The notes under the pieces are model-generated. The model ran no database searches and was not told the origin of the DNA. It was given only the letters and a program-made list of their open reading frames with translations. A stretch of 64,000 nt of DNA, taken from the NCBI GenBank assembly GCA_964485795.1, contig CAZAJQ010000007.1:3880-67879 (forward strand), written 5' to 3'. Within the stretch, counting starts at the first letter, position 1. Every line of letters starts with the position of its first letter. The DNA comes from an uncultured Gammaproteobacteria bacterium. GTDB taxonomy: Bacteria > Patescibacteriota > Patescibacteriia > VMEV01 > CAZAJQ01. This document shows positions 7,155 through 31,026 of this stretch, piece after piece. The position numbers and the translations under genes are program-made.

Positions 7155-7175
7155 ATACACATTTCTTTTCTCTTT

Positions 7176-7987: not shown

Positions 7988-8025
7988 TTTTCCGCTTTTA
8001 AAAACTCATTTCGCGCAAGAAACCG

Positions 8026-9795
8026 TCACGGCTTCTTTAAAATTTTCTTTCGAAGGCGCACAAAATGAGGAGTGATCTCGAGCAATTCATCTTCATTCAT
8101 GATCTCAAGCCCTTTTTCGATGTCGAGTTTCATGGGAGGCGTGAGCTGAATGGCGTCTTCTCCGACCGATCGAACGTTCGTCAAATGTTTTCCTTTTACG
8201 GAATTCACCCACATATCCATGCCCTTGCTGACATTGCCGATCACCATGCCTTCATACACCTCTTCATTGGCTCCCACATAGAGTGTCCCGCGATTCTGAA
8301 GGTTGTCGAGCGAGTAGGCGGCCGCTTTTCCGGTGGCCATGGATACCATCGCGCCGAGTCTATGGCGCTCAATCTCGCCGACATGCGGACGGAAATCCAT
8401 AAACCGTGAAGCCATGATCCCCTCTCCGCTCGTATCCACCATAAACTCATTGCGCAAGCCCAAAAGCCCTCGAGTCGGGATTTCAAACACCAGTCGGGTC
8501 TGTCCGTCGGTGTTTTTCATCTGCGTCATGATCCCTTTTCTACGCGAAATTTTTTCGATGATGCCGCCCACCAAAGCCTCGGGTACGAAAATCGTCAATT
8601 CCTCAAAAGGCTCGAGTTTTTTTCCCGCTTCTTCCTTGATGATGACTTCGGGAAACGTCACCTGCACTTCATAGCCTTCGCGACGCATGTTTTCAAGCAG
8701 CACGGATACATGAAGCTCGCCTCTCGCGAACACTTTGTAATACTCGGGATTGGAAAAATCGATTTTCATTCCCACATTCACTTCCAGCTCTTTCATGAGT
8801 CGCTCCCGAAGCTTCGAGTTTGTCACATATTTGCCGTCTTTCCCGGAAAACGGAGAATTGTTCACGAGCAAGCCGAGAGAAATGGTGGGTTCGTCTATCT
8901 TGATATGCGGCAAACTTTCGGCATTTTCGTCTTCGCATATGGTCTCTCCTATGGAAAGATCAGGGATACCGGCCACCATCACGATGTCTCCGGCATAGGC
9001 TTCCTTCAATGCTTCGCGCTGAAATCCTCGAAACGTGAAAATATTCGTTATCTCGCCGCTTTTGGTTTTTCCATCCGCGGTTTTTATGAACACTTTTTGC
9101 TTTTCTTTCACCGTGCCTTCGTAAATGCGAGCGATGCCGAGGCGACCGAGGAAATTATCGTATCCGAGATTGAAAGGCTGCATGCGAAGTTTCTCGCTCG
9201 CATCGCTTGGCGCGGCCGGAATATTTTCGAGAATGGCATCAAGAAGCGGACTCATGTCGTGAGATTCATCTTCCAAGTTTTTTTTGGCGATGCCTTGCTT
9301 GCCGATGGCGTATATCACTTTGAAATCAAGCTGCCGATCATTGGCTCCCAAATCGATGAAAAGTTCCAATATTTCATCAAGCGCTTCCTTGGGACGGGCG
9401 GAAGGTTTGTCGATCTTGTTCATGACCACGAGCGGATTCAGACCCAGCTCCATGGCCTTTTTGAGGACAAAACGCGTTTGCGGCATGGGTCCTTCGGCGG
9501 CGTCAACCACGAGAATCACCGAATCGATGGAACGCAAAACGCGCTCCACTTCCGAGCTGAAATCGGCATGACCGGGCGTATCGACGATATTGATCTTGGT
9601 ATCCTTATAAAATATGGAAGCGTTTTTGGCATAAATTGTGATGCCGCGTTCACGCTCCAGCGCATTGCTGTCCATGGAAACATTGTCGTCGGATATCATA
9701 CCGGTTTGACGCAGTAAAGCGTCGGTGATGGTGGTTTTACCGTGATCCACATGGGCGATAATGGCAATATTGCGTATTTCCATAAAAAAATGCAT
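8026..9795 (-). CDS. typA: Translational GTPase TypA/BipA
   Basis: IRNIAIIAHVDHGKTTITDALL, DSNALERERGITI, DTPGHADF and NKIDKP motifs; 589 aa. Confidence 0.9.
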   Translation of the reverse strand: MHFFMEIRNIAIIAHVDHGKTTITDALLRQTGMISDDNVSMDSNALERERGITIYAKNASIFYKDTKINIVDTPGHADFSSEVERVLRSIDSVILVVDAAEGPMPQTRFVLKKAMELGLNPLVVMNKIDKPSARPKEALDEILELFIDLGANDRQLDFKVIYAIGKQGIAKKNLEDESHDMSPLLDAILENIPAAPSDASEKLRMQPFNLGYDNFLGRLGIARIYEGTVKEKQKVFIKTADGKTKSGEITNIFTFRGFQREALKEAYAGDIVMVAGIPDLSIGETICEDENAESLPHIKIDEPTISLGLLVNNSPFSGKDGKYVTNSKLRERLMKELEVNVGMKIDFSNPEYYKVFARGELHVSVLLENMRREGYEVQVTFPEVIIKEEAGKKLEPFEELTIFVPEALVGGIIEKISRRKGIMTQMKNTDGQTRLVFEIPTRGLLGLRNEFMVDTSGEGIMASRFMDFRPHVGEIERHRLGAMVSMATGKAAAYSLDNLQNRGTLYVGANEEVYEGMVIGNVSKGMDMWVNSVKGKHLTNVRSVGEDAIQLTPPMKLDIEKGLEIMNEDELLEITPHFVRLRKKILKKP

Positions 9796-17165: not shown

Positions 17166-17615
17166 TCAATTCCTTTTCTTTCGATTGAGTTTCACTGGCG
17201 GCCATAGCAGCCAATACAAGGCCAATGGCGCTCCCCAATTGGCCCAACGTTCGACAAAATCCCAAATCGACAAACCAACAATCGGTCTTAAGAGTGCAGT
17301 AAAAAATCCCCAGAAAATCATCCACAACACCGCAGGACGCCATGGTTTTATCAAAAGCAAAACAGCAAAAACGACGTCGCTGAGTCCGATGATAAATAAA
17401 AATTGGGTTGCAACTCTTGCATCCGAAATCCCAAAGGTATAAAACCATTCAATCCATTCCTTTTTGCCTTGCATGGCAAAAACACCATGACCGAAGAATT
17501 CTCCGGCGACAGCAACCCTCAAAATCCAATTCATGAGCGTTGGATTCAAAATACTGTTTCCATTAATTTTCCACCTTTGGCGCACGTACCTTGAAAGGTA
17601 GTATATCACTTTCAC
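17166..17615 (-). CDS. Hypothetical small membrane protein (149 aa, Trp-rich, about 4 TM)
   Basis: Hydrophobic segments VAVAGEFFGHGVFAM, FLFIIGLSDVVFAVLLLI, VLWMIFWGFFTALL, PLALYWLLWP. The overlapping ORF 17119-17448 was rejected. Confidence 0.5.
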   Translation of the reverse strand: MKVIYYLSRYVRQRWKINGNSILNPTLMNWILRVAVAGEFFGHGVFAMQGKKEWIEWFYTFGISDARVATQFLFIIGLSDVVFAVLLLIKPWRPAVLWMIFWGFFTALLRPIVGLSIWDFVERWANWGAPLALYWLLWPPVKLNRKKRN

Positions 17616-17809
17616 GGAAGCGCGAAGAAGAGGATGTCATGATCGTAACGGTAAATTTACTTTATCTTTTTTTGCTTCAACATTATGTCGTCAAATTATT
17701 TGTTGTTTGGAGGTAAAAAGAAAAACGAAGCTCTTCAAAACTTCGTTCATCTCTACTCGAATGAAGGAGAACATGCCGACTTCGCATGACTCAGACGAAC
17801 ACCCTCCAT

Positions 17810-17852
17810 GGAGTGAAGTGTGTTCGCCCGCTGGCGAACTCTACTTCACTCC
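17810..17852. other. Perfect nested hairpin at the left edge of the integrated element (possible att/recombination or regulatory site)
   Basis: GGAGTGAAGT-G-T-GTTCGCC-CGCT-GGCGAAC-TCT-ACTTCACTCC gives a 10-bp outer stem and a 7-bp inner stem with no U-run on either side. Confidence 0.4.
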
Positions 17853-17970
17853 GAATCGTGGACAACGTCAGAACCATCTTCCAGCAACAAACTGAATACG
17901 TTTATATCCCAGATTTAAGCGCTTTCGCCACGAAATAAGGATTTACCCTACCCCGTGACTCACTATTGTT

Positions 17971-18711
17971 TCAACTTAAGCCTTCATCAACGATTTTCAC
18001 CAAAGACTCCTCCCAACCGAAACAAGTCTCTTTACCGCATAGTTTTTCAAACACCCTAACACACTTGTTATCGAGTTTTGCGTATTCCTGAAGCATTAAA
18101 ACAACCTCCTCGATGAATCCGCCGACTGTGCCATTAGAATCATCGACGCCTCCCGTACACAACTTTTTATCCAAACGTAACAGCAAATCAACGAGTAATT
18201 CAGCAGTTTGAACGCTTACAGGCAAGTCAGAGACCAATTTTGCCAATCGAGCGCACCCTTCATCAAGCGAATTTTGATAAGAAAACCAAAGACGAGACGG
18301 TACATTGTAAGGTTTGATGTGGCTCATGGCCGAGGTAATGGCTTTTTTGATTTCCGAGATTCCCTCTTTGCTCAATTCTCCACGTTTACCGCTACAGATA
18401 GGACTACTGACTCGATTCTTGTCTTCCTTGGCCAACTTTTTGCCGTTCATTACAGCATGAATAGATAAAGCAACCATGTGTTTGCAGAGTGTGTCTTGTT
18501 GGCCAAGATAACATTCGCAATTTCCCAAACCGAAACGCCGTGCCTCGATTGAAACACGGTAAGGACGGGTTCCGAGGACTACGGCCGAATATGCCCCGAT
18601 TCCCTCCTCAAACCGCGTGACTTTGCCAGATTCATACAAAACAACAGCTTTCTCATAAGTCGGCTGATCCGTGGCGAATTTGATTTTGTCTAAGCCAAAT
18701 GATGGTTTCAT
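17971..18711 (-). CDS. SWIM zinc-finger domain protein (246 aa), the last gene of the RM-linked operon
   Basis: GNCECYLGQQDTLCKHMVALSIHAV matches the CxCx(n)CxH SWIM signature. Its start overlaps the stop of the upstream 1023-aa gene by 4 nt (ATGA). Confidence 0.7.
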   Translation of the reverse strand: MKPSFGLDKIKFATDQPTYEKAVVLYESGKVTRFEEGIGAYSAVVLGTRPYRVSIEARRFGLGNCECYLGQQDTLCKHMVALSIHAVMNGKKLAKEDKNRVSSPICSGKRGELSKEGISEIKKAITSAMSHIKPYNVPSRLWFSYQNSLDEGCARLAKLVSDLPVSVQTAELLVDLLLRLDKKLCTGGVDDSNGTVGGFIEEVVLMLQEYAKLDNKCVRVFEKLCGKETCFGWEESLVKIVDEGLS

Positions 18712-21700
18712 GTTGATTTGTTGTTTTCACCAATAACGCTTTTGAACTTCCAGAACGTACTGCCCCCCTCACGGATAAGAGAATCAATCAGAGTGTATGT
18801 GGCATTTTTTGTATCTTGATTTGAGTACAGAATCGTCAAGGCTTCGACCCACTCATCATCGTACATAAACGGCAAGCGCATCTTTCCGCCTCGAATACCG
18901 CCTTCCAGCAAGTGTAAGCGGACAATGTCAAAGGTGTCCTTGGGATTGACCTTGGCCAATTCGGCGATGCTTTTTACAAGAGCATAATCCCATTCCAAAA
19001 ATCCCGTGGTCTTTTCAAGAGTTTTTTTGGCCATTTTAGCCAGCCATGAAGAATCAAAAACTTTTTTATCCATATTCATCCAAAAACCGAAATCCGCGAA
19101 TATTTTGCCATCATCATGATTTGTAACCGCCCATTCCCAAAAATCAATCAATCTCTGCTTGCATTGAGCGTTTTTGGCCAGCAACTCCTTGGCTTGTACA
19201 TTATCGCCAGAAACAAACATGCGTCCTATAAAGCTGACAAATTCAGCCTGTCTTTCAACATCTTTACCTTTTTCCCAAAACTTTTTGAATAAAGGATCGT
19301 CAAAACCAAACTTTGGACAATAGAACATGAAGGCCAAGGCAAAGTGAATAGCAAGTCCCTCGTCAGGTTCCTTAAAATGTCTTCGTGTTTTATCTTCATC
19401 TCCAACCAAAGACAGCCCTCGTTCATACAGAGCTTGTATTTTGGGGTCAAAGAAAAGCTCTTCGTACAAATTGTTTGCAAGATAGCCCTCCCAAGAAGCA
19501 AGATACAAATAACGTTTTTCAGATTCTTCTGGGAAGATTAGAGGCAATAAGCCACTGATCCAATCTCGGTCGCGGAAATAAAATGTTGGCAGGTAATGGC
19601 CAAACATAAACATCAAAGCGCGCGTTTCTTCGGCCTTCAAGACGTTCTCGTATAAGAGTTTTACTTGAGCGTCAATTTTGATTTTATCGGTATTTAAGAA
19701 TTTTTTACCGTCCTGATAAACAAAAAGAACAAAGGATTGAAAAGCCCTTCCACGCACCGAGTTAATAGCCATCGTGAACGGATCCGTGACCAAATATTCC
19801 TCTTTTTGCCCAGCTAAACGCGTTTTGGACTTTGCAGTCTCAAGCTCTTCATCCTTCAATTCGGGATCGGGATACGAAAGCAAGAATTCATGTATCAGGT
19901 ACAACTTCTCCCGATATTTTGGGAAATCCAAAATAGTTTCGCCAAGATTATCATTCAGCAATTCCTGCAAAACATCGGTTATTGAGGATAGTGCGCCTGT
20001 CCAATTGGCAAGCCACGCATCATACATTTCACGATCACGTTTTTGTGCGTCAAAAGATTTTGTTTTACCTGATTCGGAAACCTCAAGCATGCTGTCAATC
20101 AATTCGTCCCAGTCAATCGCTTTTAAGTTTGTTTTATCGGCTTTAATCGCTTCTTGAACGCCTCGAAAGAAGCTGTATGTATAATGCTCATCGATAATCT
20201 CTCTTTGGAAAAACAGTTTTGCTTTTGCAAGATAATCACCAAATCTTTTGGCTATATCCGTGCGTAATTGTGACCCCACACCTTCCGCATTTAATGGATT
20301 TAGAAAATCCTCATGCGAGTTTTGTTTTGCCAGTGTCGCTGGTTGCCACTCATTCTTCAATTTTTCGACTATAACGGATATTTCAAGTTTACCGAATTCT
20401 TCTTGTGAGATGGCGCCTTTGGAAACAACGGCTCCTCCGCGCATATGACCGATTGATGTCTCGGGTTCAAACTTATCGTCACATCTTTTCCCGAATACCG
20501 TCTCGCATTTTTCTTTTTCATCCTCAGTCAAATATTTGCATACGCTGGACAATATTTGCCAACCATCGCGCTTGTACCAACTTTCCACTTTTTTGTCTTC
20601 GTTTGGTTTTCCGAAATACTCAAAAACATTTACTACATATTGGCGTTGATAATCTCCCCTCAGTGAGCCGAAAGTCTTTTTTAAAGCTTTTTTATACTCT
20701 GTTCCTGATTTGATTTCATGATAGTGCTTGCCAGATTTCATTACATCAAACAACCTCGAAAACATTTCTTCCAATTTTTCTCGAAAAGCCATTGGACAAA
20801 GACTGAGGATAAACAGCTTCAGCTTCCAGATCGATTGACTTTCGGGAATCTGAACAATGATTTTTTCAAATTGTTCATTAACATGGTCGGCTTTGTCGCA
20901 ATTTACGCCGAAAGCTCTTTCACCAAGTGTTTTTACGCAAGCGATTAAATCCTTAGCGTTTTCACGATCGGAAAGATGTCTCTGCTGATTCAGGTTCAAT
21001 GTGAATAAATCCGTATCATAAAGATGGAAAATGTCTTCGTATTCAAAAATCCCATCGTCATCGGCTTCCGCCAGCTTAACCGTTTCCGCAAGCTTTCCGC
21101 AGACCAATTTTAGTGTTTCTGCAACATCCTTTTCCTCAATATCAGCCAGATGTTCGAAAACTTTTGTGTAAGACAAATCCTTAAAGTAAAAAGGATTATC
21201 AAAAAGGTAGCCGTTGGAATTTTTCTTGTAATCATCTTTATTTTTGACTGCCAGCACTGCGTCGGCCAGCATTAGCAAACTCTTGCCGTCATTGTTTGTT
21301 TTCAAGGATTCAAACATTTTTTCATATTCGAAGCCCCATTCATTGAAGACGCTCATCGATTGTACCCAATTATCCGTCTTGATTTTCTCAACCATTCTCG
21401 CCAGTTCGTTTGCAGGCAATGAACCGCAAATCCGTAAAAACTGGTCTATCACCTCGGGATTGAAATTATCTTTTGATGTATCCACGGAAAGCATGATATC
21501 AACAATTTCTTTCGGCATTGTTTCAGCCATTCGAACAAGATAATTCAATTCAGGCGTACGATAGCCGTATCGTGTCGGGTTGCTCGATTTTTCCTTTATT
21601 ACATCAAGGAATCCGTTATCCCAAAGCCAAATCAACCATTTACCATCGGACTTAGTAAAAAAATATTGTTTTGCGTCAGTGTTTGTAGAAATAATTTTGG

Positions 21701-21779
21701 CAACCAAAGACACATCTTCGGATTTCGCCTCCCGAATAAGTAATTCATCGATCGATTTGTGTAATTCTATTTGGTTCAT
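18708..21779 (-). CDS. Large uncharacterised alpha-helical protein (1023 aa) with no recognisable catalytic motif, encoded immediately upstream of and translationally coupled to the SWIM protein
   Basis: Complete ORF that is Trp/Phe/Lys/Glu-rich (WLIWLWDNGF, WLANWTGAL). I could find no Walker A, HExxH, DEAD or obvious nuclease motif by eye. Both ends make 4-nt ATGA overlaps with the neighbouring genes. Confidence 0.7.
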   Translation of the reverse strand: MNQIELHKSIDELLIREAKSEDVSLVAKIISTNTDAKQYFFTKSDGKWLIWLWDNGFLDVIKEKSSNPTRYGYRTPELNYLVRMAETMPKEIVDIMLSVDTSKDNFNPEVIDQFLRICGSLPANELARMVEKIKTDNWVQSMSVFNEWGFEYEKMFESLKTNNDGKSLLMLADAVLAVKNKDDYKKNSNGYLFDNPFYFKDLSYTKVFEHLADIEEKDVAETLKLVCGKLAETVKLAEADDDGIFEYEDIFHLYDTDLFTLNLNQQRHLSDRENAKDLIACVKTLGERAFGVNCDKADHVNEQFEKIIVQIPESQSIWKLKLFILSLCPMAFREKLEEMFSRLFDVMKSGKHYHEIKSGTEYKKALKKTFGSLRGDYQRQYVVNVFEYFGKPNEDKKVESWYKRDGWQILSSVCKYLTEDEKEKCETVFGKRCDDKFEPETSIGHMRGGAVVSKGAISQEEFGKLEISVIVEKLKNEWQPATLAKQNSHEDFLNPLNAEGVGSQLRTDIAKRFGDYLAKAKLFFQREIIDEHYTYSFFRGVQEAIKADKTNLKAIDWDELIDSMLEVSESGKTKSFDAQKRDREMYDAWLANWTGALSSITDVLQELLNDNLGETILDFPKYREKLYLIHEFLLSYPDPELKDEELETAKSKTRLAGQKEEYLVTDPFTMAINSVRGRAFQSFVLFVYQDGKKFLNTDKIKIDAQVKLLYENVLKAEETRALMFMFGHYLPTFYFRDRDWISGLLPLIFPEESEKRYLYLASWEGYLANNLYEELFFDPKIQALYERGLSLVGDEDKTRRHFKEPDEGLAIHFALAFMFYCPKFGFDDPLFKKFWEKGKDVERQAEFVSFIGRMFVSGDNVQAKELLAKNAQCKQRLIDFWEWAVTNHDDGKIFADFGFWMNMDKKVFDSSWLAKMAKKTLEKTTGFLEWDYALVKSIAELAKVNPKDTFDIVRLHLLEGGIRGGKMRLPFMYDDEWVEALTILYSNQDTKNATYTLIDSLIREGGSTFWKFKSVIGENNKST

Positions 21780-22372
21780 AATGAGTTAGTTTTTTTTACA
21801 GCAAAATTCTGAATTTCAGACAATTTCGAAAAAAATGTTTTTACCCTCTCTATGAAAATGTCATCTTTATAACAATCTTCCAATTTCAAAGCATTATTTT
21901 TTAACAAAGCTATTAATGAGCCTTGAATAGTGGACGCATTATGATGATCTATTCCTGTAAAATATTGATAGTGTTGCCGAAATTCTTTAAAAACTTCGGA
22001 TTCATTTGAGGCTAATTTTTCACCTTCATTTTTATAAAACTTAACAAAATCCGATTCAAGTTGCCCTTCACTCCATTCATGAAATATTTCGCGCAATGAC
22101 GAGGCGCAATGTTCTTTCCATTCTGGATTATGTTGTTTGTTCGTTCCTATAGCAAAAATTGCACCTTGAAGCATTGTTACAGCATTGCGTGTGACTTGCT
22201 TCTTTCGGGTATCTCTTATTTTCTGATACAAATCATTAACGAATGTACCAAAATTTTCAACTTGTTCCTTGCTTATTCCAATCAAATATAAACCATCGGT
22301 GAAAGGGTCGGATATTGTTCCGTCCACCGATGTCCCTTTGCCTATTAATTCTTTATCAATAATTAGATCCAT
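21776..22372 (-). CDS. Hypothetical protein (198 aa), the first of three unknown genes downstream of the RM cassette
   Basis: Complete ORF. It starts 3 nt after the methyltransferase stop and overlaps the next gene by 4 nt. No recognisable domain. Confidence 0.6.
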   Translation of the reverse strand: MDLIIDKELIGKGTSVDGTISDPFTDGLYLIGISKEQVENFGTFVNDLYQKIRDTRKKQVTRNAVTMLQGAIFAIGTNKQHNPEWKEHCASSLREIFHEWSEGQLESDFVKFYKNEGEKLASNESEVFKEFRQHYQYFTGIDHHNASTIQGSLIALLKNNALKLEDCYKDDIFIERVKTFFSKLSEIQNFAVKKTNSL

Positions 22373-22375
22373 GTA

Positions 22376-23122
22376 TTAAACTTTTTGAAAAACGAAAATA
22401 TGCTCATGCATTATTAAAAGGAAATTCGACTCTCTCGATTTATTAACCCAAAAACCAGTTGCCTTACAATTAAACTGACGTTTGATTATATCCTCCTTCA
22501 AAGTAAAACCTGCCCCTAAAAACTTTTCCATAACTCGATATGCCAAAGGTTGATACATTTTATTCCTTCGCGTATCTCCCATTAGGATTGAGCAATAATT
22601 GCCTTTTTTCAGCACTCTGAATAACTCTTTTGCGACTTTATCCATTTCAGTAACAAACGACTCAATACTATGAATATTCGATAGATCCTCGTCGATTTTT
22701 CCTTCGCTGTACTTGATAATATCCGCATAAGGCGGATGAGTCAGAATAAAATCGATTGAATTATCCTGAAGGACTTTCAAATCTCGAGCATCGGCTTTTA
22801 AAACCTTCTGCCAAGACTGATTGTCGACATTAAAATTCAGACACTTTTTCGTCCGCTCAATAGCCAGATCGTTTATGTCTGAACAATAAAGATTGCGATT
22901 TAATAGCTTACATTCGATAGCGGTAGTTCCTCCGCCAATCATAGGATCAAGTAAAATATCGCCCTCCTTCGAGTATCGCAAAATTAAATTACGAACTACT
23001 TCTGGCGCCCAATTTCCCCTCCAATCAGATGTGTGAGTAGCCCAGTTGCCACGGCGAGGAAACGCCCATACCGATGTGCATTCAAGCTCAAAGTTATCTG
23101 GATTAAAATTGCTTGCTCCCAT
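22376..23122 (-). CDS. DNA methyltransferase (N6-adenine/N4-cytosine family), the second MTase of the GATC-type cassette. Its motif order I then IV is circularly permuted relative to DpnA.
   Basis: The AdoMet motif EGDILLDPMIGGGTTAIEC closely resembles the DpnA C-terminal EGDYILDPFVGSGTTG, but here it lies about 50 aa from the N-terminus. Motif IV LTHPPYADI follows about 70 aa later. Confidence 0.8.
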   Translation of the reverse strand: MGASNFNPDNFELECTSVWAFPRRGNWATHTSDWRGNWAPEVVRNLILRYSKEGDILLDPMIGGGTTAIECKLLNRNLYCSDINDLAIERTKKCLNFNVDNQSWQKVLKADARDLKVLQDNSIDFILTHPPYADIIKYSEGKIDEDLSNIHSIESFVTEMDKVAKELFRVLKKGNYCSILMGDTRRNKMYQPLAYRVMEKFLGAGFTLKEDIIKRQFNCKATGFWVNKSRESNFLLIMHEHIFVFQKV

Positions 23123-23124
23123 AG

Positions 23125-23979
23125 TTACCAGCTTAATTTATCAAGTACGCCGTCTTCTAGCATTTGAAGATTAAAAACATACTCATTATGGTTGTATGTT
23201 TCTTCAAGAGGACGCTTGGTTGTGTGCCATCCGAGACCATCAGTGACCCAAATAAAATCAATATTCTGCGCCTTCAATTCATCAAAAAGACTCTTGAATT
23301 CACCGCAAACAGCTTTAAGTTTTGATCCGCCTCCATTGTAAAAATTAGCTTCAAACAGTTTTATCTTCTTGTTTTTTGGATTGAATATTGCGAAGTCGAA
23401 ACTACGTTCAGATTTATCCACCCGAACCATTACTCCCCATTTATTTGAAATCGCCGTGGATCGAGCTTGTGCCAGATACTCAAGCCCATGCTTTGCACAA
23501 AATTCTTTAATAAATTGCTCAACAATTTCCTCCATCATGGTACCTCCGCGATTCTTTCTGCCATTGCTATCAAGTCCAACCTCAACGCCCATCACATAAT
23601 CAACGAGGTTTTTAACGCCGTCTTTTTTGAACAACTTCGCAAGGCCTGATTTTTCCAAAAACTCATAATACTTATCTGGAGTACTGTTACCTGAAGTAAA
23701 GTCGAACAGCTCAGTGGTTCTTTCTTGTTTATCAAATATTTCTAGCTTGCTTTCGCGAACTGCCAATAGCACTGGGAAGGCTTTCACGATGTCAGGATTT
23801 GAGGCAAATAACTTGTTAAATTCGGATTCCAGATTTTCCTTCCCGAGCAAGTAATTGAGTTTATTTAAAGTAATTTCCAGCTCTGATTTATTTTCAAAAA
23901 CCTTTTTCCAGTTTACGAAATAATCCCAAGTTTTAATTGAGCTCTTAAAAGTGCCGACTAACTGTTCGAAATTTTTCAT
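23125..23979 (-). CDS. Type II restriction endonuclease of the DpnII/MboI family (predicted GATC specificity)
   Basis: VDYVMGVEVGLDSNGRKNRGG, FEANFYNGGGSKL and IWVTDGLGW match remembered DpnII (VDYVTGVEVGMDTNGRKNRTG, VNFYSGSGSKL, MWITDGQGW). 284 aa. Confidence 0.8.
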   Translation of the reverse strand: MKNFEQLVGTFKSSIKTWDYFVNWKKVFENKSELEITLNKLNYLLGKENLESEFNKLFASNPDIVKAFPVLLAVRESKLEIFDKQERTTELFDFTSGNSTPDKYYEFLEKSGLAKLFKKDGVKNLVDYVMGVEVGLDSNGRKNRGGTMMEEIVEQFIKEFCAKHGLEYLAQARSTAISNKWGVMVRVDKSERSFDFAIFNPKNKKIKLFEANFYNGGGSKLKAVCGEFKSLFDELKAQNIDFIWVTDGLGWHTTKRPLEETYNHNEYVFNLQMLEDGVLDKLSW

Positions 23980-23984
23980 AAGTT

Positions 23985-24941
23985 TTAATAATTAGTAATA
24001 ACAACCTCCGAAATCTTTCCTCTCTTGCTCGCGTCAGAGTTTATCGCCCTTCCAGCTGAGACTTTGGAAAGTCTAATCCCGTCAAGGTTTGAATAAAGTT
24101 CGTTGATGAATGGAGTATCAGAATTGGACAGCATTACATAGCAACCTCTTGAAGCCAATTTAACGAACGTATCTCTAAGTTCTGTCTGCTCCTTTTCCAA
24201 AAATGATTCACTTGTGTAGGCAGTAAATGATGCGGTTCTGCTAACTGGGTAATAAGGCGGATCAAAATAAACAAAATCGCCTTTTTGAGCGTGCTTCAAT
24301 ACCTCCTTGTAGTCTTGCTTTTTAATTTCAACGGACTGTAAAGCATCAGATACTTTTCTTAAATTTTGCTCATCGCAAATAAGCGGATTATTGTATCGTC
24401 CAAAGGGAACGTTAAAACCACCCTTACTGTTTACTCGATACATACCATTGAAACATGTCCTGTTAAGGAAAATGAATCTTGATGCAATTTCAACATCAGT
24501 TAGTTGCGATACATCATAAGCGCGAACGCTCAAGAAATAATCCTTATCGATTTGATGTTTTTTCAGAGATAAAATTAAAGATTCAACGTCATTTTTTATG
24601 ACGTTATAAGTCGTCACCAATTCATGATTCATGTCTGATAAAACCGCATTGTCGGGTAGTAAATCGAAAAAGACTGCGCCACCACCAACGAACGGCTCAA
24701 AATATGTTGACTCTTGAGGATTGAAGCCGAAAGGTGGATATAATCCGAGTAGTCTGAATTGACTTAGTAATTGTCTTTTTCCACCGACCCACTTAACAAA
24801 AGGCTTTGGCTTAGACTGTATAATTTTTGAAACGTCCTCGATCAAATTATCTTTATTTGATAACAAGAAAACCTTGTATGCGTATATCGCATTTATATCA
24901 AAGGTTTTTGTCAGCTCTATAATGGCTTGTTCTTGTGTCAT
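23985..24941 (-). CDS. Dam-family (D12 class, alpha) N6-adenine DNA methyltransferase, DpnM-like
   Basis: KWVGGKRQLL, FEPFVGGGAVFF and FVYFDPPYYP motifs; 318 aa. Confidence 0.85.
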   Translation of the reverse strand: MTQEQAIIELTKTFDINAIYAYKVFLLSNKDNLIEDVSKIIQSKPKPFVKWVGGKRQLLSQFRLLGLYPPFGFNPQESTYFEPFVGGGAVFFDLLPDNAVLSDMNHELVTTYNVIKNDVESLILSLKKHQIDKDYFLSVRAYDVSQLTDVEIASRFIFLNRTCFNGMYRVNSKGGFNVPFGRYNNPLICDEQNLRKVSDALQSVEIKKQDYKEVLKHAQKGDFVYFDPPYYPVSRTASFTAYTSESFLEKEQTELRDTFVKLASRGCYVMLSNSDTPFINELYSNLDGIRLSKVSAGRAINSDASKRGKISEVVITNY

Positions 24942-24963
24942 GTTATTTGATCAAAATTTATTA

Positions 24964-25182
24964 TTAGACAGACTTTTTTATCAGTTTCAAAATATCTTCC
25001 TTGCGATAGCGTCTGTCTTGGCGCTCCCCGAAACGCACGGCTTTCAAGATTCCTTTTCTGTCCCACTGCCTCAAGGTGTTGGGGTGGCATTTTAAAATTT
25101 CCGACGCCTCTTTGAGGCTCAGAAGTTCGGGCAGTTCTTGGTCGTTTTGGTCTGAAGTATGCATTGATTTATCACTTAACAT
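24964..25182 (-). CDS. Excisionase/MerR-like helix-turn-helix DNA-binding protein (Xis-like)
   Basis: LSLKEASEILKCHPNTLRQWDRKGILKAVRFGERQDRRYRKEDI is the HTH_17/excisionase pattern. It is divergent from the phage-like + strand block. Confidence 0.65.
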   Translation of the reverse strand: MLSDKSMHTSDQNDQELPELLSLKEASEILKCHPNTLRQWDRKGILKAVRFGERQDRRYRKEDILKLIKKSV

Positions 25183-25245
25183 TTGATAACATTATTGTAC
25201 AGCAGAAAAAAAGAATCTGCAAACGAAAAATTACACGATATTAAC

Positions 25246-25854
25246 ATGACTATGACAACTGGAAATAAGGTTTTGGCTGTTATGCAAGCCATTGCCGAAA
25301 CCCTTGAAATTTCACCCAAGGGACAGCCAATGCAGATCGATCCGACGAAACTTGAGGAATCCCTTTCCAAGGTCGAAATAAAACAAATCTTTCAAAAACT
25401 TGCCGACGAGCAAGGTGTTGTTGAGTTACTCAGAACACCGTACTCCTTCGATGTTGTAATCGGCGAAGACCAAGACGTGTACAAATTCAACTTGACTGAT
25501 ATCGGCAAATTTCAAAAATATCTGGATGAGCTTAAACGCAAATCGTCCGACAAACAGGCAGACACGCGCACGCCCATGTTTCGCTTCAATCAGGGGGTTC
25601 TGTTCAGGGATTTTTGCGATACCATCCTCAAGATTGGCGGAGAAAACACATTCGAATACAGACTGATTCAAACTGCGCTGAGAACACCCGTTGGTGAGAA
25701 AATCGACACCCTAACTGATGAATTGGAAATGGACTGGCGCCAGCTTTATGATACTGCCAAGAGGCTTAACGATAAGATTAAATCGACTTTCAAGATAGCT
25801 GACTTTTTCATGATCGATTACCAAAACAAAAACATCAAAAAGACAATCGAATAG
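25246..25854 (+). CDS. Hypothetical phage/plasmid-like protein
   Basis: An ORF starting at 25183 is listed. The internal Met at 25246 leaves room for a divergent promoter. No domain recognised. Confidence 0.45.
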   Translation: MTMTTGNKVLAVMQAIAETLEISPKGQPMQIDPTKLEESLSKVEIKQIFQKLADEQGVVELLRTPYSFDVVIGEDQDVYKFNLTDIGKFQKYLDELKRKSSDKQADTRTPMFRFNQGVLFRDFCDTILKIGGENTFEYRLIQTALRTPVGEKIDTLTDELEMDWRQLYDTAKRLNDKIKSTFKIADFFMIDYQNKNIKKTIE

Positions 25855-25960
25855 TTGAGCGGAAACCGTTCAACGTTGAGTCAACGCCCAAAGAGTAGCC
25901 TGAAATCAAAGGCTATTTTTTTATGGCGCAAAAACGCCGTTTAACCATTAACAAAATTAT

Positions 25961-26251
25961 ATGACTCAACACACATTCGATCCGTCTTCCGAACCCGTTT
26001 ACGTTCCGCTGGACGACGCGGAAAATTATTTTTACAGCCACGACATCGGTTTGGTGGCTTATTTGCTTTGCCAAGATTTTGAACTGGTCGGCTTGGACAA
26101 AGCGATGCGAAACAAGGTGCTGTTCATTTTGAAAAAAGATGAAGCCATTGAAACCGAGATCAAGAAGTATTGGGACTTCAAATCGGCCGTGGACGCGCAG
26201 AGCTATTTCAACCAGATCAAACGGCTCAAAAACCAAATTTTCAGCTCTTAA
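25961..26251 (+). CDS. Hypothetical small protein (96 aa)
   Basis: Complete ORF, co-directional and tightly spaced with downstream genes. Confidence 0.4.
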   Translation: MTQHTFDPSSEPVYVPLDDAENYFYSHDIGLVAYLLCQDFELVGLDKAMRNKVLFILKKDEAIETEIKKYWDFKSAVDAQSYFNQIKRLKNQIFSS

Positions 26252-26260
26252 TCGAAAGCC

Positions 26261-26443
26261 ATGTTGTCGGACGAGCAAATCAAAAAATTTCAGACCCTCT
26301 ACAAAAACCGCTTTGGCAAAGAAATCTGCCGAGAGGATGCTTTGGATCAGGGCGTGAAACTCATCCGACTCATGGAATTGATTTATAAGCCGATGACCGA
26401 AAAGGACTTGGAGCTTTTACGGGCAAGACGGCAAACGACTTAA
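26261..26443 (+). CDS. Hypothetical small protein (60 aa)
   Basis: Complete ORF 10 nt after the previous stop and 28 nt before the primase gene. Confidence 0.35.
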   Translation: MLSDEQIKKFQTLYKNRFGKEICREDALDQGVKLIRLMELIYKPMTEKDLELLRARRQTT

Positions 26444-26470
26444 CGCATACAAATTTTAACCAAACATTAT

Positions 26471-28693
26471 ATGAACCGAGAATTTGAAACCATCGCTCCG
26501 AAAGAATATCTGACCTCAAAAGGAATCGCTTACAGGGAAAGCGGAAAAGAGCTGATCGTCTGCTGTCTTTTTAACGACTGTGACAAGGACAGTAAGGGCA
26601 ATGAGGCGCATTTGTACCTCAACGCCGAAACGGGACAATACGAATGCAAGAAATGTGGAGAAAGAGGCAATCTGATCACACTTGCCAAACGCTTGGGCGA
26701 TGATTTGCAAGATATTGCCATTAACAACGAAACGTTCAACCGCGTTTCGCAACGTAAGCCGAAATTTGACGCCCGTTCGGTCGAGTCGGCCGTTATGGCA
26801 CTTCCAGACCACATCCGCCTGTATCTCAAAAACAGGGGCGTTTGTGACGAGGTTATCGACCATCACAAGATCGGCTGGGGAGAATTTTACGGCAAACACT
26901 GGATTACCATACCGATCAAGGACGTTAACGGGGCTTATCGCTACTTCAAACTCAGACAAGACCCAAGCGAAGGCGATGAAAAGATCACTTACCCGAAAGG
27001 CGCTGAAGCTCAGATTTACGACTGGGAGAGTTTGAACGATTCAAGCGATCGGCTTGTCATTTGCGAAGGTGAAATGGACAGGCTCGCTTTGCTTTCCAAA
27101 AACATCAACGCCGTTACTTCAACACACGGCGCCATGACCTTCAAACAGGAATGGTGCGAAAGAATCAGTGATAACAAGAAAATTTATATCTGCTACGACA
27201 ATGACGAGGCTGGGAGAAAAGGCGCGGAAAGGGTGGCAAAAATATTGCACAACGGCAAGCGCGAAATTCAAATCATCACTTTACCGCCCGAGGTCGGCGA
27301 CAGCGGAGACATGACAGATTTTTTGGTAAAGCTAAACGGCAACCCAGACGACCTGTTCGGCAAATACGCCAAACCGTATCCCGAAAAAATCGACGTGTCT
27401 CAATTCAAACCTTTAACAACGAAAAACCTGCTTGAGATTCTCGGACTCACCATCAAGCAAGACGAGGAAAACAAGATTGCCACGTTCTTGTGTCAGCTTT
27501 CAGCCTTCACCGAAAACGCGCAATTCAACATCAGCTACAATGCGCCATCGTCCACGGGCAAAAGCTATATACCAACCGAAATAGCACGACTATTCCCAGA
27601 GGATGATGTTATGGAACTCGCATATTGCAGTCCGACCGCTTTTTTCCATGACGTGGGCGAATATGACAAAGAGATGAAGGGCTATCTGGTGGATCTGTCG
27701 CGCAAAATCCTTATCTTTCTCGATCAACCGCACAACGAGCTTTTGGCCAGATTGAGGCCGTTATTATCGCACGATAAAAAGCAAATCATGCTCAAGATAA
27801 CGGACAAATCGCAAAAGTTCGGACTCAAAACAAAAAACGTTTTACTGAGAGGTTATCCGTCCGTGATTTTCTGCACGGCAGGTTTGCGTATCGATGAACA
27901 GGAAGCCACTCGCTTCTTGCTTTTGAGTCCCGAAATCAATCAAGAGAAAATCAGGCAAGGCATTTTGGAGAGCATTAAAAAAGAGGTCGACTCCCAAAAT
28001 TATAAAAGCTGGCTTGATGAAAATCCTGAACGAAAACTGCTCAAAGAACGCATACGAGCCATCAAACAGGAAAACATCAAAGAAATAAAGTTATCGGGAG
28101 AGCAAAAAATCATCGAACGGTTTTTTAATCAGACCAAACTTCTTAAACCAAGACATCAGCGCGATATCAAACGATTGATATCACTCATCAAATCATTCGC
28201 GTTAATCAATCTTTGGTGGCGTGACCGCAAAGGCACGACCATTACGGCCAATGATGCGGACATCGAACAGGCTTTTGCAGTTTGGAATGTTATTGCGGCC
28301 AGTCAGGAACTCAATTTGCCGCCATACATTTACAACCTCTATCAAGAGGTTATTTTGCAGGCTTGGACGGACAAAAACGCTGTATTGCCAAAGGCGGAAA
28401 AGGTTGGATTGTCGAGACAAGAGGTTTTGCAAAAACATTTCGAAGTTTATGGCAGAATGCTCGACACCAACCAATTGCGCCAGCAGATATTGCCCATGTT
28501 GGAGACGGCAGGATTGATTGTTCAAGAACCAGACCAGAATGACAAAAGAAAAATCCTGATTTATCCGTCTTTACGAACCGACAAGCGGAAAAACAATAGT
28601 GTAACCGAGGGTGGGGTAAAAACAACGGACGACCGAAACGGAACGGATGATTTTAATCTTGAGACGAAAATCTCTAATGATTTCGGCATGTAA
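26471..28693 (+). CDS. Phage/plasmid-type DNA primase-helicase: CHC2-like zinc finger + TOPRIM + P-loop NTPase domain
   Basis: N-terminal Cys cluster CCLFNDCDKD..HLYLNAETGQYECKKCGERGNL. TOPRIM: LVICEGEMDRLAL ... IYICYDNDEAGRKGAERV. Variant Walker A: YNAPSSTGKSY. 740 aa. Confidence 0.8.
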   Translation: MNREFETIAPKEYLTSKGIAYRESGKELIVCCLFNDCDKDSKGNEAHLYLNAETGQYECKKCGERGNLITLAKRLGDDLQDIAINNETFNRVSQRKPKFDARSVESAVMALPDHIRLYLKNRGVCDEVIDHHKIGWGEFYGKHWITIPIKDVNGAYRYFKLRQDPSEGDEKITYPKGAEAQIYDWESLNDSSDRLVICEGEMDRLALLSKNINAVTSTHGAMTFKQEWCERISDNKKIYICYDNDEAGRKGAERVAKILHNGKREIQIITLPPEVGDSGDMTDFLVKLNGNPDDLFGKYAKPYPEKIDVSQFKPLTTKNLLEILGLTIKQDEENKIATFLCQLSAFTENAQFNISYNAPSSTGKSYIPTEIARLFPEDDVMELAYCSPTAFFHDVGEYDKEMKGYLVDLSRKILIFLDQPHNELLARLRPLLSHDKKQIMLKITDKSQKFGLKTKNVLLRGYPSVIFCTAGLRIDEQEATRFLLLSPEINQEKIRQGILESIKKEVDSQNYKSWLDENPERKLLKERIRAIKQENIKEIKLSGEQKIIERFFNQTKLLKPRHQRDIKRLISLIKSFALINLWWRDRKGTTITANDADIEQAFAVWNVIAASQELNLPPYIYNLYQEVILQAWTDKNAVLPKAEKVGLSRQEVLQKHFEVYGRMLDTNQLRQQILPMLETAGLIVQEPDQNDKRKILIYPSLRTDKRKNNSVTEGGVKTTDDRNGTDDFNLETKISNDFGM

Positions 28694-28702
28694 CAACTCA
28701 AC

Positions 28703-29293
28703 ATGACCAGAAAAATCGCGGAAATATCAAACGGCTTGAGCGTCTTCTTTCTGAAAAAACACGGCTTTCTGCCACAGGGAGACTCTTGGCGCAACGGCGG
28801 AATCAAATGGACGTGGGATGATTGGCAAAGCAATATCGGTTTTTCCGTGCAAACGCAGACAGACGACAATTCAGGGTATATTGAACTGAACTACACGGTG
28901 ACGGACGGGCAATCGAACGAAAAGACCGAGATGAAATACAAAATCAAACTTGTGACGACTTCCTGCAATTACGGCGGAAAGCGCTACTGGTTCGAATGTC
29001 CATTAACGACTAACGGCGAATATTGCGGACGCAGAGTCGGCGTCATTTACAGCGTCGGTAAGCTGTTCGGCTGTCGGTATTGCGCCAATGTAGCCTATCG
29101 CGCCCAATTTGAGAGCGGAAAATATCGTGTCGGATCAAGCACAAAACTCAACATTCAGGATGCTTTGACGGAAGCTACAACCCGTTATTACAACGGCAAG
29201 CCGACAAGGAAATTCAGGCGCTATTTAAGGCTTCGGGAAAGGTTGGAAATCATGTGGGCGAAGATAGCCGAAAAACTGGATATTATTCAATAA
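28703..29293 (+). CDS. Hypothetical protein with Cys4 zinc-ribbon-like motif
   Basis: CNYGGKRYWFECP...YCGRR...CRYCANV; 196 aa; lies between the primase and integrase genes. Confidence 0.5.
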   Translation: MTRKIAEISNGLSVFFLKKHGFLPQGDSWRNGGIKWTWDDWQSNIGFSVQTQTDDNSGYIELNYTVTDGQSNEKTEMKYKIKLVTTSCNYGGKRYWFECPLTTNGEYCGRRVGVIYSVGKLFGCRYCANVAYRAQFESGKYRVGSSTKLNIQDALTEATTRYYNGKPTRKFRRYLRLRERLEIMWAKIAEKLDIIQ

Positions 29294-29345
29294 AACGTAT
29301 ATGTTTGAAGTGTCAACCAAAGGCATATTTAAGCCAAAAATTACA

Positions 29346-30992
29346 ATGACCAAAGACACCGCAAAAATCAAATACTTTCTGTATTCCAGAAAGTCATCGG
29401 AGAGCGAGGATCGTCAGGTGCAATCCATTGACGATCAAATCAATCGCTTGAAAAGAATCGCCGATGATTTGAATATTGAGGTCGTTAAAATTTACACCGA
29501 AGCCAAGTCAGCCAAAAAGCCGAACAACCGACCGATATTCGACGAAATGGTGGAACGAATCGAAAAAGGCGACGCCGGCGGAATATTGTGCTGGCAAATC
29601 AACCGCCTTTCCAGAAATCCCATAGACAGCGGAAAATTGAGCTGGCTTCTGCAAAGAGGGGTTTTAAAATCAATTCAGACCATAGACCGCCAATATCTCC
29701 CTGAGGATAATGTCCTGTTGTTCAGCGTGGAAAGCGGTGTGGCCAACCAATACATTCTGGATTTGAGCAAAAACACCAAGCGAGGACTGCAAAGCAAACT
29801 GGAAAAGGGCTGGCAAAACGGAATCGCGCCTCTGGGCTATTTGAACGACAAAGAAAACAAAACCATCATCACAGACCCCGAACGGTTCAATCTCGTTCGT
29901 AAAATGTGGGACTTGATGCTTACAGGAAACTACACTCCTCCCAAAATTCTGGAAAAAGTAAATGAAGAATGGGGCTTTCGCACAAGAAAATTTAAAAGAA
30001 TGGGCGGTAATCCACTGTCGCGAAGCGGAATTTATAAAATTCTGACGAATCAATTTTACGCTGGAATCATCGAAGTTAACGGCCAGCAATACGAGGGGCA
30101 ACACGAAAAGATGATCACTTTTGAGGAATACGACAGGGCGCAGATGTTACTTGGCCGTGAGGGCAGACCGCGCCCGAAGACCCGAGCGTTCGCATTTACG
30201 GGAGCCATAAGATGCGGAGTTTGCGGGTGTTTGTACACCGCCGAAGTGAAAAAGAAACTCATTAAAAGCACGGGGCGGATAAAAGAATACACCTACTATC
30301 ACTGCACAAGAAAAACGATGAAAATCAAATGCGATCAACGGAAAAGCATACCTGTTGAGGATTTGGAAGTGGCCATTGAGCAAGAAATCGAGAAATACAC
30401 GATATTGCCAGAGTTTTTGGATTGGGCGTTGGAAGGTTTGAACAAAAAGAACGATACGGAAATAGAAGACCGCACCAAGATTTACGAGATGCAACACGGC
30501 AATTTGGCCAAAACCCAAAAAGAGCTGGATGAACTCACCAAGATGAGATACCGCCAGCTTATCGACGACGAAACCTTTATCAAGGAGAAAAACGCATTAC
30601 AAATTAAAATCGGCCAATGCAAAGAAAACTTGCGCACCACCGAAACAAGAGCTGAAAAATGGCTTGAGCTGACTGAGAAGACATTCAACTTTGCCACTTA
30701 CGCACGTTCTGCATTTTTAAAAGCCAGTGAAATGGGCAAACAAGGGTTAGAACTGAAGAAAGAAATTTTGCTCGCCATTGGAAAAACTCCGATAATAAGG
30801 GACGGAAAGCTCACCATCGAACCGAATGACTGGCTTGCGGAGATCGAAAAAGCGTATCCATCGCTTGAGAAAGAATACCTTAGGTTAGAACCGACGAAAA
30901 ACCGCTTGAATAAACGTGAAAACCGAGCTTTAGGCTCGGTTCATACACGTTGGCTCCGGGGGTGGGACTCGAACCCACGACCAATTGGTTAA
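29346..30992 (+). CDS. Large serine recombinase (serine integrase)
   Basis: The resolvase catalytic region KYFLYSRKSSESEDRQVQSIDDQ has the Y-x-R-x-S motif. It has a recombinase domain, a zinc ribbon CGVCGC...YYHCTRK and a long C-terminal coiled-coil. The last roughly 14 codons read through the tRNA-Asn 3' end (..GWDSNPRPIG), so the true stop may be earlier. Confidence 0.85.
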   Translation: MTKDTAKIKYFLYSRKSSESEDRQVQSIDDQINRLKRIADDLNIEVVKIYTEAKSAKKPNNRPIFDEMVERIEKGDAGGILCWQINRLSRNPIDSGKLSWLLQRGVLKSIQTIDRQYLPEDNVLLFSVESGVANQYILDLSKNTKRGLQSKLEKGWQNGIAPLGYLNDKENKTIITDPERFNLVRKMWDLMLTGNYTPPKILEKVNEEWGFRTRKFKRMGGNPLSRSGIYKILTNQFYAGIIEVNGQQYEGQHEKMITFEEYDRAQMLLGREGRPRPKTRAFAFTGAIRCGVCGCLYTAEVKKKLIKSTGRIKEYTYYHCTRKTMKIKCDQRKSIPVEDLEVAIEQEIEKYTILPEFLDWALEGLNKKNDTEIEDRTKIYEMQHGNLAKTQKELDELTKMRYRQLIDDETFIKEKNALQIKIGQCKENLRTTETRAEKWLELTEKTFNFATYARSAFLKASEMGKQGLELKKEILLAIGKTPIIRDGKLTIEPNDWLAEIEKAYPSLEKEYLRLEPTKNRLNKRENRALGSVHTRWLRGWDSNPRPIG

Positions 30993-31026
30993 CAGCCAAC
31001 TGCTCTACCGACTGAGCTACCCCGGA
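30951..31026 (-). tRNA. tRNA-Asn (anticodon GTT)
   Basis: Reverse complement: TCCGGGGTAGCTCAGTCGGTAGAGCAGTTGGCTGTTAACCAATTGGTCGTGGGTTCGAGTCCCACCCCCGGAGCCA. The 7-bp acceptor, D arm GCTC/GAGC, anticodon loop CTGTTAA, T arm GTGGG-TTCGAGT-CCCAC and encoded CCA all fold as a cloverleaf. Confidence 0.85.

Follow-up and report, generated by a model that had tools for sequence, protein, structure and literature searches.

Genomic islands at tRNA genes are textbook knowledge, and they almost always carry tyrosine integrases. Serine integrases are valued as tools of genome engineering, although the way in which they choose their targets is poorly understood, and the Candidate Phyla Radiation (CPR, or Patescibacteria) has tiny genomes that mostly lack CRISPR and whose mobile elements are little known. 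Here, we analyzed a 64,000-nucleotide stretch of contig CAZAJQ010000007.1 (GenBank assembly GCA_964485795.1; hereafter, the window), in which we read positions 17849/17854–30958 as a 13.1-kb integrative element whose large serine recombinase (LSR) inserted it at the very 3' end of a tRNA-Asn gene in a Parcubacteria (CPR) host. We place the probability of this reading at roughly 85%. In what follows, attB and attP are the attachment sites of host and element (with arms B, B', P, and P'), and attL and attR are the left and right junctions of the integrated copy.

Tycheposons of Prochlorococcus use tyrosine recombinases in 910 of 937 cases and have partial-tRNA repeats of ~40 nt (bioRxiv 10.1101/2020.12.28.424599). 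The element in the window and its relatives resemble them in being small, in lying at tRNA 3' ends, and in their modular set of integrase, excisionase, primase/helicase, and variable cargo. In both groups, integrase lineages correspond to the tRNAs that they target, and tandems and decayed remnants occur beside the tRNA (compare loci L051, L105, and L110 below). Unlike tycheposons, the elements described here have an LSR, a core of 5–9 bp, an attP within the integrase open reading frame (ORF), and CPR hosts, and their genes are probably unrelated in sequence to those of tycheposons. The tycheposon architecture (tRNA-specific integrase, replication module, and cargo) is thus present, and the resemblance, compared by description, would be functional only. 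The element also differs from Islander-type tRNA islands, because it lacks a displaced tRNA repeat of tens of nucleotides (none of ≥14 nt is present) and has a serine rather than a tyrosine integrase.

Attachment sites within coding sequences are known from two other systems. In mycobacteriophages with integration-dependent immunity, attP lies in the repressor gene, the integrase is of the tyrosine type, and integration removes a degradation tag. In SSV-type archaeal viruses, which target tRNA genes, the tyrosine integrase gene itself contains attP and is split in two. Here too, attP lies in a coding sequence and integration alters the C-terminus of, or splits, a gene that controls lifestyle. 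Unlike in these viruses, the enzyme is a serine integrase and its last 27 residues are exchanged for tRNA-antisense ones. The integrases of A118/LI, TP901-1, phiC31, Bxb1, SPbeta, and CcrAB share the domain set and the short crossover core with the integrase in the window, whereas the latter targets a tRNA acceptor end instead of a protein-coding gene, is encoded by a gene that spans attP, and has an extra C-terminal region. The main text of a large LSR survey (PMC10083194) contains no mention of tRNA. A literature search of incomplete coverage, which leaves a prior description possible, returned no description of the CPR family or of tRNA-end LSRs with attP in the integrase gene. The family is large and apparently undescribed.

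Junctions of the element with the tRNA-Asn gene

The features that define the two ends of the element are as follows.

30951–31026 (−): tRNA-Asn(GTT), called by ARAGORN and by Rfam (74.3 bits)
29301–30992 (+): large serine integrase, integrated-state isoform, 563 aa, with Resolvase, Recombinase, and Zn_ribbon_recom domains
30954–30958 (no strand): attR core CTCCG, equal to the discriminator base and the first four bases of the tRNA acceptor 3' strand
30919–30942 (−): conserved hairpin followed by a T-run, antisense within integrase codons, 9–11 nt beyond the CCA of the tRNA; it also belongs to the P arm
17854–17938 (+): P' arm and orphan integrase-tail coding sequence (IVDNVRTIFQQQTEYVYIPDLSAFATK, then stop), from the motif and the tail hidden Markov model (HMM)
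17849–17853 (no strand): attL core CTCCG, the same as in attR; the profile match for the tail begins exactly at 17849
17810–17852 (no strand): host-side attL arm (B arm), an imperfect palindrome of 43 bp; the last bases of the native tRNA, now displaced, form part of its right arm
17723–17748 (−): host intrinsic terminator with an 11-pair stem and T-run, just outside attL and not part of the element

An earlier reading made from the sequence alone (hereafter, the sequence-only reading) had reported a tRNA-Asn(GTT) at 30951–31026 that abuts a serine recombinase ORF, with PP2C, rpoD, and dnaG as core genes to its right. Both ARAGORN and Rfam recover this tRNA, and the three core genes are present in the right flank. 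Positions 1–39255 of the window match, without any difference, an NCBI metagenome-assembled contig of a ‘Parcubacteria group bacterium’, which places the host in the CPR. The integrase ORF overlaps the tRNA gene by 42 nt, and its stop codon TAA (30990–30992) lies in the anticodon loop. Residues 1–551 of the integrase are element-encoded and conserved, and the last 10–12 residues (from 552–554, depending on the crossover) are tRNA antisense.

The catalytic domain of the integrase (PF00239, 7e-19) spans residues 26–170, with a catalytic-serine motif YSRKSS that aligns to YCRVST of 3g13. It is followed by matches to PF07508 (3e-8) and PF13408 (1.3e-10), and residues 225–464 align to the C-terminal domain of the A118 integrase (4kis, 1.5e-7). 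Its matches include A118, TP901-1, and a conjugative-transposon recombinase, and the AlphaFold2 model of a relative contains long helices at 354–462 (low confidence). The serine catalytic domain, the Recombinase domain and zinc beta-ribbon with a coiled-coil insert, and the short att core with a 5-bp shift of the outer motif (in the right arms) identify the enzyme as an LSR. It has roughly 3,800 homologues, and the best 120 clusters are 75–100% identical to it, with CPR lineages as the named ones, whereas identity to any phage or plasmid LSR is ≤28%. The extra C-terminal region of ~100 aa (residues 465–551 plus the tail) was found in only 202 representative clusters. The NCBI record annotates only a 293-aa ‘zinc beta ribbon domain-containing protein’ (MBI4117692.1; window 30111–30992) for this integrase, and most public family members are contig-end fragments, and assemblies usually break at the junction; therefore, standard pipelines under-detect the family.

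To compare junctions, we used 80 metagenome loci fetched for integrase homologues. A convergent tRNA gene overlaps the integrase 3' end in 55 of these 80 loci, and these tRNAs are specific for Asn, Gln, Trp, His, Ser, or Glu. Three further loci abut tRNA genes that carry group I introns (L026:3112–3372, L052:5541–5797, and L070:11685–12009) and that ARAGORN left uncalled. When the related loci were combined with the window's own junction (n = 56), the conserved part of the integrase ended with ...SVRA(R/H)W at TGG, the antisense of the tRNA CCA, in 55 of 56 junctions, and past this TGG the integrated ORFs read the tRNA antisense up to a chance stop codon. Un-split (attP-type) integrase genes, in contrast, were found in eight loci lacking a tRNA and in 13 of the 120 top homologues, and here W-L-R is followed by a conserved tail with the consensus (I/V)V(N/D)xVRTI...YIYIPDL. 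Both att ends were recovered for seven related elements (eight attL/attR pairs), which share a stretch of only 5–9 bp. The overlap common to all pairs comprises positions 4–6 counted from the T of TGG, i.e., tRNA nucleotides 73–71 (the discriminator and two acceptor bases), and position 7 (tRNA position 70) is also allowed if the most distant pair is left out. These alignments place the crossover within tRNA positions 73–71, possibly 70, and the central dinucleotide could not be fixed more closely than positions 4–6 (or 4–7).

The left end of the element was found through the integrase tail. An HMM built from seven independent attP-type tails had a single match in the six-frame translation of the window, at 17849–17929 (E = 2.6e-20), where an orphan tail is encoded at 17855–17935 (+) and is preceded by CTC CGA (Leu-Arg). 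The boundaries, and the length of 13,105 bp, were derived from the junctions of relatives and not from repeats in the window, and are set by the 5-bp core CTCCG at both ends; the attL crossover lies inside this core or at its edge. The sequence-only reading had given the extent as 17620–31026. Its insertion point at the tRNA holds, and its left start has to be moved ~230 bp further in, to ~17849–17854, since 17620–17848 is host DNA outside the element. The direct att repeats that it had suggested looking for did not appear: a search of the whole window with exact k-mers of 10–15 nt and a repeat finder recovered no repeated tRNA piece of ≥14 nt, and the shared core is only 5 bp. The sole 13-mer repeat, a palindromic match of CCAATTGG at 495–507, was judged to be due to chance. 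A long repeat is not expected, because a serine integrase requires only a tiny shared core, and for the same reason a direct-repeat search is ill-suited as a test. The central claim of an integrated element with a tRNA 3' end as attB is supported by the junctions of relatives, the orphan tail, the att pairs, the variable cargo, and the composition shift described below.

The insertion rebuilt the end of the tRNA gene. Depending on the crossover, the element now supplies the last 5–7 nt of tRNA-Asn, namely the encoded CCA, the discriminator base, and at most three bases of the acceptor. The displaced native tRNA end at attL reads TCA instead of TGG, and therefore the original tRNA-Asn gene probably had no encoded CCA. 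The hairpin at 30919–30942 has eight pairs, of which four show compensatory changes in an alignment of 14 elements, and is probably a replacement tRNA terminator, with the native one displaced 13 kb by the insertion. The terminator at 17723–17748 was probably the native terminator of tRNA-Asn. The palindrome at 17810–17852 occurs once in the window and folds as a hairpin (z = −5.2 for 17700–17975). An att site and a repetitive extragenic palindromic element were considered for it at first; given its single occurrence in the window and its host-side position, we instead interpret it as the trailer hairpin that belonged to the native tRNA. In the empty site, this hairpin and the terminator would come directly after the tRNA gene.

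Some contig breaks and a second tRNA gene were also recorded. Logan contigs from three samples all start at 17793, 56 nt outside attL; this break was rejected as an att marker because it fits neither the attB nor the attP branch, and these three samples contain no record of the host left-flank proteins. Right-hand Logan breaks at 31002 and 30974 were likewise set aside, since a 31-mer that also occurs in other tRNA genes accounts for them best. A tRNA-Ser(GGA) gene at 40916–41005 (−) has no adjoining integrase or orphan tail and is an unoccupied potential target.

Site geometry and the integrase tail

In attB, the zinc-ribbon motif of the Listeria-phage (LI) integrase is 5 bp closer to the crossover than it is in attP (PMC3783163). 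In the family studied here, all 16 P' arms contain TxGAACC with GAAC at positions 26–29, and at least 54 of 56 tRNA-side B' arms contain the T-loop sequence TCGAACC with GAAC at positions 21–24. The T-loop motif is thus shifted by exactly 5 bp toward the core relative to the P' motif, matching this attB/attP rule. By analogy, the B' half-site would be the tRNA itself, with the T-loop TCGAACC serving as the motif for the zinc-ribbon domain. The distance from the T-loop to the acceptor end is fixed in every tRNA, and therefore the family could move among six tRNA species. Retargeting would need a change of only a few attP core bases, and the attP core covaries with the tRNA target: TGGCTCCG for Asn and Gln, TGGCAGGG for Trp, TGGCGGA for Ser, and TGGGGTG for His.

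Past the P' arm, the codons of the tail have a pN/pS of 0.16 across nine elements, including tails that are orphaned at attL. This value implies that the peptide matters and that the elements are active now or were so recently. Sequence comparison shows that attP lies inside the 3' end of the element's own integrase gene. With the native tail orphaned at attL, integration swaps the C-terminus of the enzyme: the last 27 integrase codons are moved 13 kb away to attL, such that the integrated copy encodes a 563-aa integrase with a tRNA-antisense tail, and an un-split copy (circular or tandem) would encode a 580-aa integrase with the native 27-residue tail. Through this swap, the integrase can probably ‘know’ whether the element is integrated. 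Excision would have to proceed by the tail-less isoform, and the tail would therefore be dispensable for catalysis. We conjecture that the native tail favors integration or controls stability.

In the related locus L110:1–9851, two related but different elements stand in tandem and are joined by a P-core-P' junction; the alternative that this contig is a circle was rejected, as it holds a tandem of two different elements with 90% identity over 212 nt. In L051, two orphan tails (at 671 and 1464) lie 800 bp apart. The L110 tandem and the L051 double tail suggest repeated integration at the same tRNA.

Replication module, cargo, and restriction-site avoidance

Between attL and the integrase gene, the element contains a rightward module and a leftward cargo unit. 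The genes of the former, together with the helix-turn-helix (HTH) gene that faces away from it, are listed here.

24964–25164 (−): HTH_17/MerR excisionase-like regulator, 66 aa, first gene of the leftward cargo unit, in the same position in 11 related loci
25252–25854 (+): 200-aa protein, first gene of the rightward module, from gene calls, without family match
25961–26251 (+): DUF5659 protein (6.3e-10), core, in 34 related loci
26261–26443 (+): conserved 60-aa core protein, in 43 related loci with 43–83% identity
26471–28693 (+): primase-helicase-like replication protein, 740 aa, with zinc finger, Toprim_2 (5e-15), and P-loop, matching the PHROG DNA primase/helicase
28703–29293 (+): 196-aa Cys-rich protein directly upstream of the integrase, with Cys clusters, in 31 related loci, without family match

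The genes that the sequence-only reading had placed left of the integrase (a Cys-rich or Zn protein, a primase-helicase, small ORFs, and a divergent Xis-like HTH gene) are all present. The 740-aa protein has a Walker A motif (APSSTGKS) at residue 358 and matches to the structures of T7 gp4 and DnaG primase. The core module, comprising the DUF5659, 60-aa, primase-helicase, and 196-aa proteins and the integrase, is kept in 31–43 loci, with the HTH gene upstream on the opposite strand. This module would provide replication and recombination, and its 196-aa protein is, by inference only, a candidate accessory or directionality factor; the 60-aa, DUF5659, and HTH proteins are further, purely conjectural candidates for the directionality factor of excision.

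This gene set bears on the question of how the element moves between cells. The labels ‘mobilisable element’ and ‘satellite prophage’, used in the sequence-only reading, are not established; no relaxase, capsid, or packaging genes were found. A phage satellite similar to phage-inducible chromosomal islands (PICIs), which would use its own integrase and primase for excision and replication and helper capsids for transfer, is nevertheless an explanation to consider, and we regard it as unlikely. The small size (7–13 kb across the family) and the combination of integrase, excisionase-like HTH protein, and primase-helicase without virion genes resemble PICIs and PICI-like tycheposons. Two weak matches point the same way, one to GP3_package in the relative L110 and one of the HTH gene to a small-terminase PHROG, and the strong restriction-site avoidance (see below) suggests entry as double-stranded DNA. 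Against this, genes for capsid, terminase, packaging redirection, or helper interference are not recognizable in the window, the family was not found in IMG/VR, and no helper phage is known. Under our reading of an LSR-inserted integrative element, transfer between cells may occur by a helper phage, transformation, or vesicles.

The cargo unit extends leftward from the HTH gene to attL and contains six genes.

23985–24941 (−): Dam-like D12-class N6-adenine methyltransferase (PF02086, 5.2e-61; PADLOC, 5.7e-98)
23125–23979 (−): DpnII/MboI-family endonuclease (PF04556, 5.2e-95, full length; PADLOC REase_II, 8.5e-98)
22376–23122 (−): second DNA methyltransferase, N6_N4 class, DpnA/M.MboIC-like (PF01555, 2.5e-24; PADLOC MTase_II, 9e-87)
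21776–22372 (−): 198-aa partner of the solenoid protein; a small gene precedes the solenoid gene elsewhere
18708–21707 (−): 999-aa all-helical HEAT/ARM-like solenoid (AlphaFold2, predicted local distance difference test score [pLDDT] 85.6)
17971–18711 (−): 246-aa protein, SWIM-like zinc finger (its SWIM match falls short of the Pfam cut-off; N-terminal region of PADLOC candidate PDC-S62 matched at 1.3e-14)

The 7-kb minus-strand operon (17971–24941) with Dam methyltransferase, DpnII-like endonuclease, second methyltransferase, and three unknowns was therefore described correctly by the sequence-only reading. The endonuclease and the Dam-class methyltransferase are adjacent and co-oriented within one operon, and the cargo accordingly includes a restriction-modification (R-M) system of the MboI/DpnII type. 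The MboI gene order is M-R-M. As in the known MboI/DpnII systems, a D12 methyltransferase, a DpnII endonuclease, and an N6_N4 methyltransferase form one operon; unlike in those systems, the genes are cargo of an integrative element and are followed by three co-oriented unassigned genes.

The solenoid protein has more than 400 homologues, none of which has a Pfam domain. Searches of the 999-aa protein against Pfam, PHROG, NCBIfam, and PDB sequences gave no match and no enzymatic domain, and Foldseek returned only generic karyopherin/CAND1-like solenoids (template modeling score about 0.2). A small gene (201–236 aa) lies directly before the solenoid gene in L105, L108, and L109. The small protein of L108 (Omnitrophota) is 66% identical to the 198-aa protein, and that of L105 (Parcubacterium) is weakly similar. 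In some homologues, the two proteins are probably fused (~1180–1200 aa, judged from lengths only). The 246-aa protein has a 73% identical copy in L070. Functions in anti-phage defense or addiction are likely for the R-M system and the three-gene module, and context suggests a defense role for the solenoid module.

Solenoid pairs also occur away from this integrase. In an Omnitrophota metagenome-assembled genome (L108:1911–9291 and L109), a pair of 236-aa and 1012-aa proteins lies between a cyclic oligonucleotide-based antiphage signaling system (CBASS; CD-NTase and Cap15) and a different serine recombinase. In a Parcubacterium (L105:2062–11100), dnaG, rpoD, and tRNA-Asn are followed by an integrase-less island with an N6_N4 methyltransferase, DpnII, a 201-aa protein, a 1004-aa solenoid, and an Mrr_cat nuclease, and two degenerate P'-like remnants are present at ~2380 and ~11045. 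This island has the appearance of an element that decayed while its cargo stayed in place.

Cargo is always found between the HTH gene and the P' arm and is co-oriented with the HTH gene, and the contents of this slot vary. The same DpnII cassette is present in L070 (86–89% identity) and in the tRNA-His lineage L095 (73–78%), a type I R-M system in L028, and CBASS in L110. An orphan LOOT RNA (Rfam RF03000) was found in 19 related loci and is a regular component of the family. It lies on the same strand and directly downstream of the HTH/MerR gene in L035:3338–3464, L040:3206–3331, L053:3993–4107, L055:3671–3793, and L080:3318–3438 (all −), and on the other strand in L043:3276–3389 (+). The RNA is absent from the element in the window and from L070, in which the DpnII cargo comes after the HTH gene.

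The composition of the element differs from that of its surroundings. Inside the element, CCGG was observed once (31 expected), compared to 217 sites outside (232 expected), and a CCGG-free gap of 12,072 bp extends from 17503 to 29575, whereas the median gap in the window is 137 bp. GATC occurs 3.05 times per kb inside and 5.62 times per kb outside, i.e., it is about two-fold rarer inside, in answer to the comparison that the sequence-only reading had proposed. Among relatives (elements of L029, L040, L055, L080, L081, L084, and L101), several have no CCGG (17–25 expected) with normal host flanks. GATC is entirely missing from many relatives without the DpnII cassette and is tolerated by DpnII carriers, again with normal host flanks. 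The depletion of both motifs is the signature of repeated entry into cells that defend themselves by CCGG- and GATC-specific restriction. Other CCGG-free stretches in the window are found at 59252–60569, 49143–50104, and 6834–8330, with a GC content of 0.35–0.38 at 59–61 kb and 49–50 kb; the low-GC stretches at 59–61 and 49–50 kb may be further foreign segments.

Composition and slot variation also speak to the idea that only a 6-kb integrase-replication backbone is mobile and that the 7-kb R-M region is host DNA or a separate R-M unit. The GC content of the cargo (0.36–0.40) is below that of the backbone (0.44–0.46; flanks, ~0.45), one Logan contig starts only 3 nt past the stop codon of the HTH gene (24961), and the same R-M cassette is present in lineages with different integrases (L095). 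In contrast, the CCGG depletion spans both parts (0 sites in the cargo, 1 in the backbone), and the cargo has the same slot and orientation in L028, L070, L095, and L110. Furthermore, the orphan tail and P' arm (17854–17938) lie to the left of the cargo, which is therefore inside the att sites, and we find such a composite very hard to credit. Exchange of cargo in this slot most likely accounts for the variation and agrees with a single 13.1-kb element. The Logan break at 24961 fits cargo-swap variants in the population.

Strength of the reading and its meaning for CPR mobile elements

Several results weigh against our reading of a 13.1-kb LSR-inserted element or against parts of it. Exact-protein look-ups and the related loci yielded no empty attB, attP circle, or excision junction for the window's own copy or host, and exact-protein look-ups of the flank genes gave the same arrangement only, or no match. 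A single scan of the PP2C protein against genome contigs returned best hits of only 22–36% identity, in Oscillospiraceae and similar taxa, and thus no close relative of the host. Circularity is unsupported, since none of 13 candidate contigs has a terminal overlap, and attP-type junctions can also stem from tandem arrays such as L110, so extrachromosomal forms are not demonstrated. The left arms do not display the expected attP/attB symmetry: GTTCG stands at B-type spacing in the P arm, and no motif is common to the host-side B arms. In the examination of attP for dyad symmetry, agreement with the LSR rule was seen for the right arm. No capsid, terminase, packaging, conjugation, or relaxase gene was recognizable among 13 proteins searched with Pfam, PHROGs, and NCBIfam, and hence no transfer machinery, and an integrase scan of IMG/VR gave no match. 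The GATC specificity ascribed to the cargo comes from its protein family. Finally, AlphaFold2 produced a poor model of a full-length attP-type integrase, with a tail pLDDT of <50, and therefore the role of the tail stays conjecture.

The missing excised or empty form would also be expected if the element had once been mobile and were now a fixed, vertically inherited defense locus, with an integrase made inactive by the loss of its native tail. The integrase-less L105 island at the same tRNA-Asn, with its DpnII genes, solenoid pair, and degenerate P' remnants, indicates that fixation does happen in this lineage. The copy in the window, on the other hand, has kept its core genes, its two att arms, and its orphan tail ORF intact, and the attL tails of integrated relatives are still under purifying selection. 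Near-identical copies were found in several samples (L025, 98%; L099, 89%), and CCGG is still depleted, with no drift back to the composition of the host. Given these differences, we consider a grounded state improbable for this copy and retain the interpretation of an intact integrative element.

For the family as a whole, we offer a broader account only tentatively and rate it somewhat below even odds. It would be a very widespread and hitherto undescribed CPR family of LSRs with a tRNA-shape address, consisting of the T-loop as outer motif and a crossover at the acceptor end, in which a few attP core bases suffice for retargeting. The split of the integrase gene upon integration would be deliberate, giving state-dependent isoforms that set the direction of recombination without, or beside, a classical directionality factor, with the LOOT RNA as a component.

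If true, this broader account would make the enzyme a naturally ‘programmable’ LSR. The family itself offers a simple and testable logic of target choice: a universal tRNA element is set apart from the crossover by a constant distance, and the core has been rewritten at least six times in nature. The exchange of the enzyme C-terminus upon integration is probably an unusual built-in sensor of integration state. The family is also a major vehicle in CPR/Patescibacteria for R-M, CBASS, and unassigned defense cargo, and its extreme avoidance of CCGG and GATC indicates the restriction systems that guard against incoming DNA in these communities.

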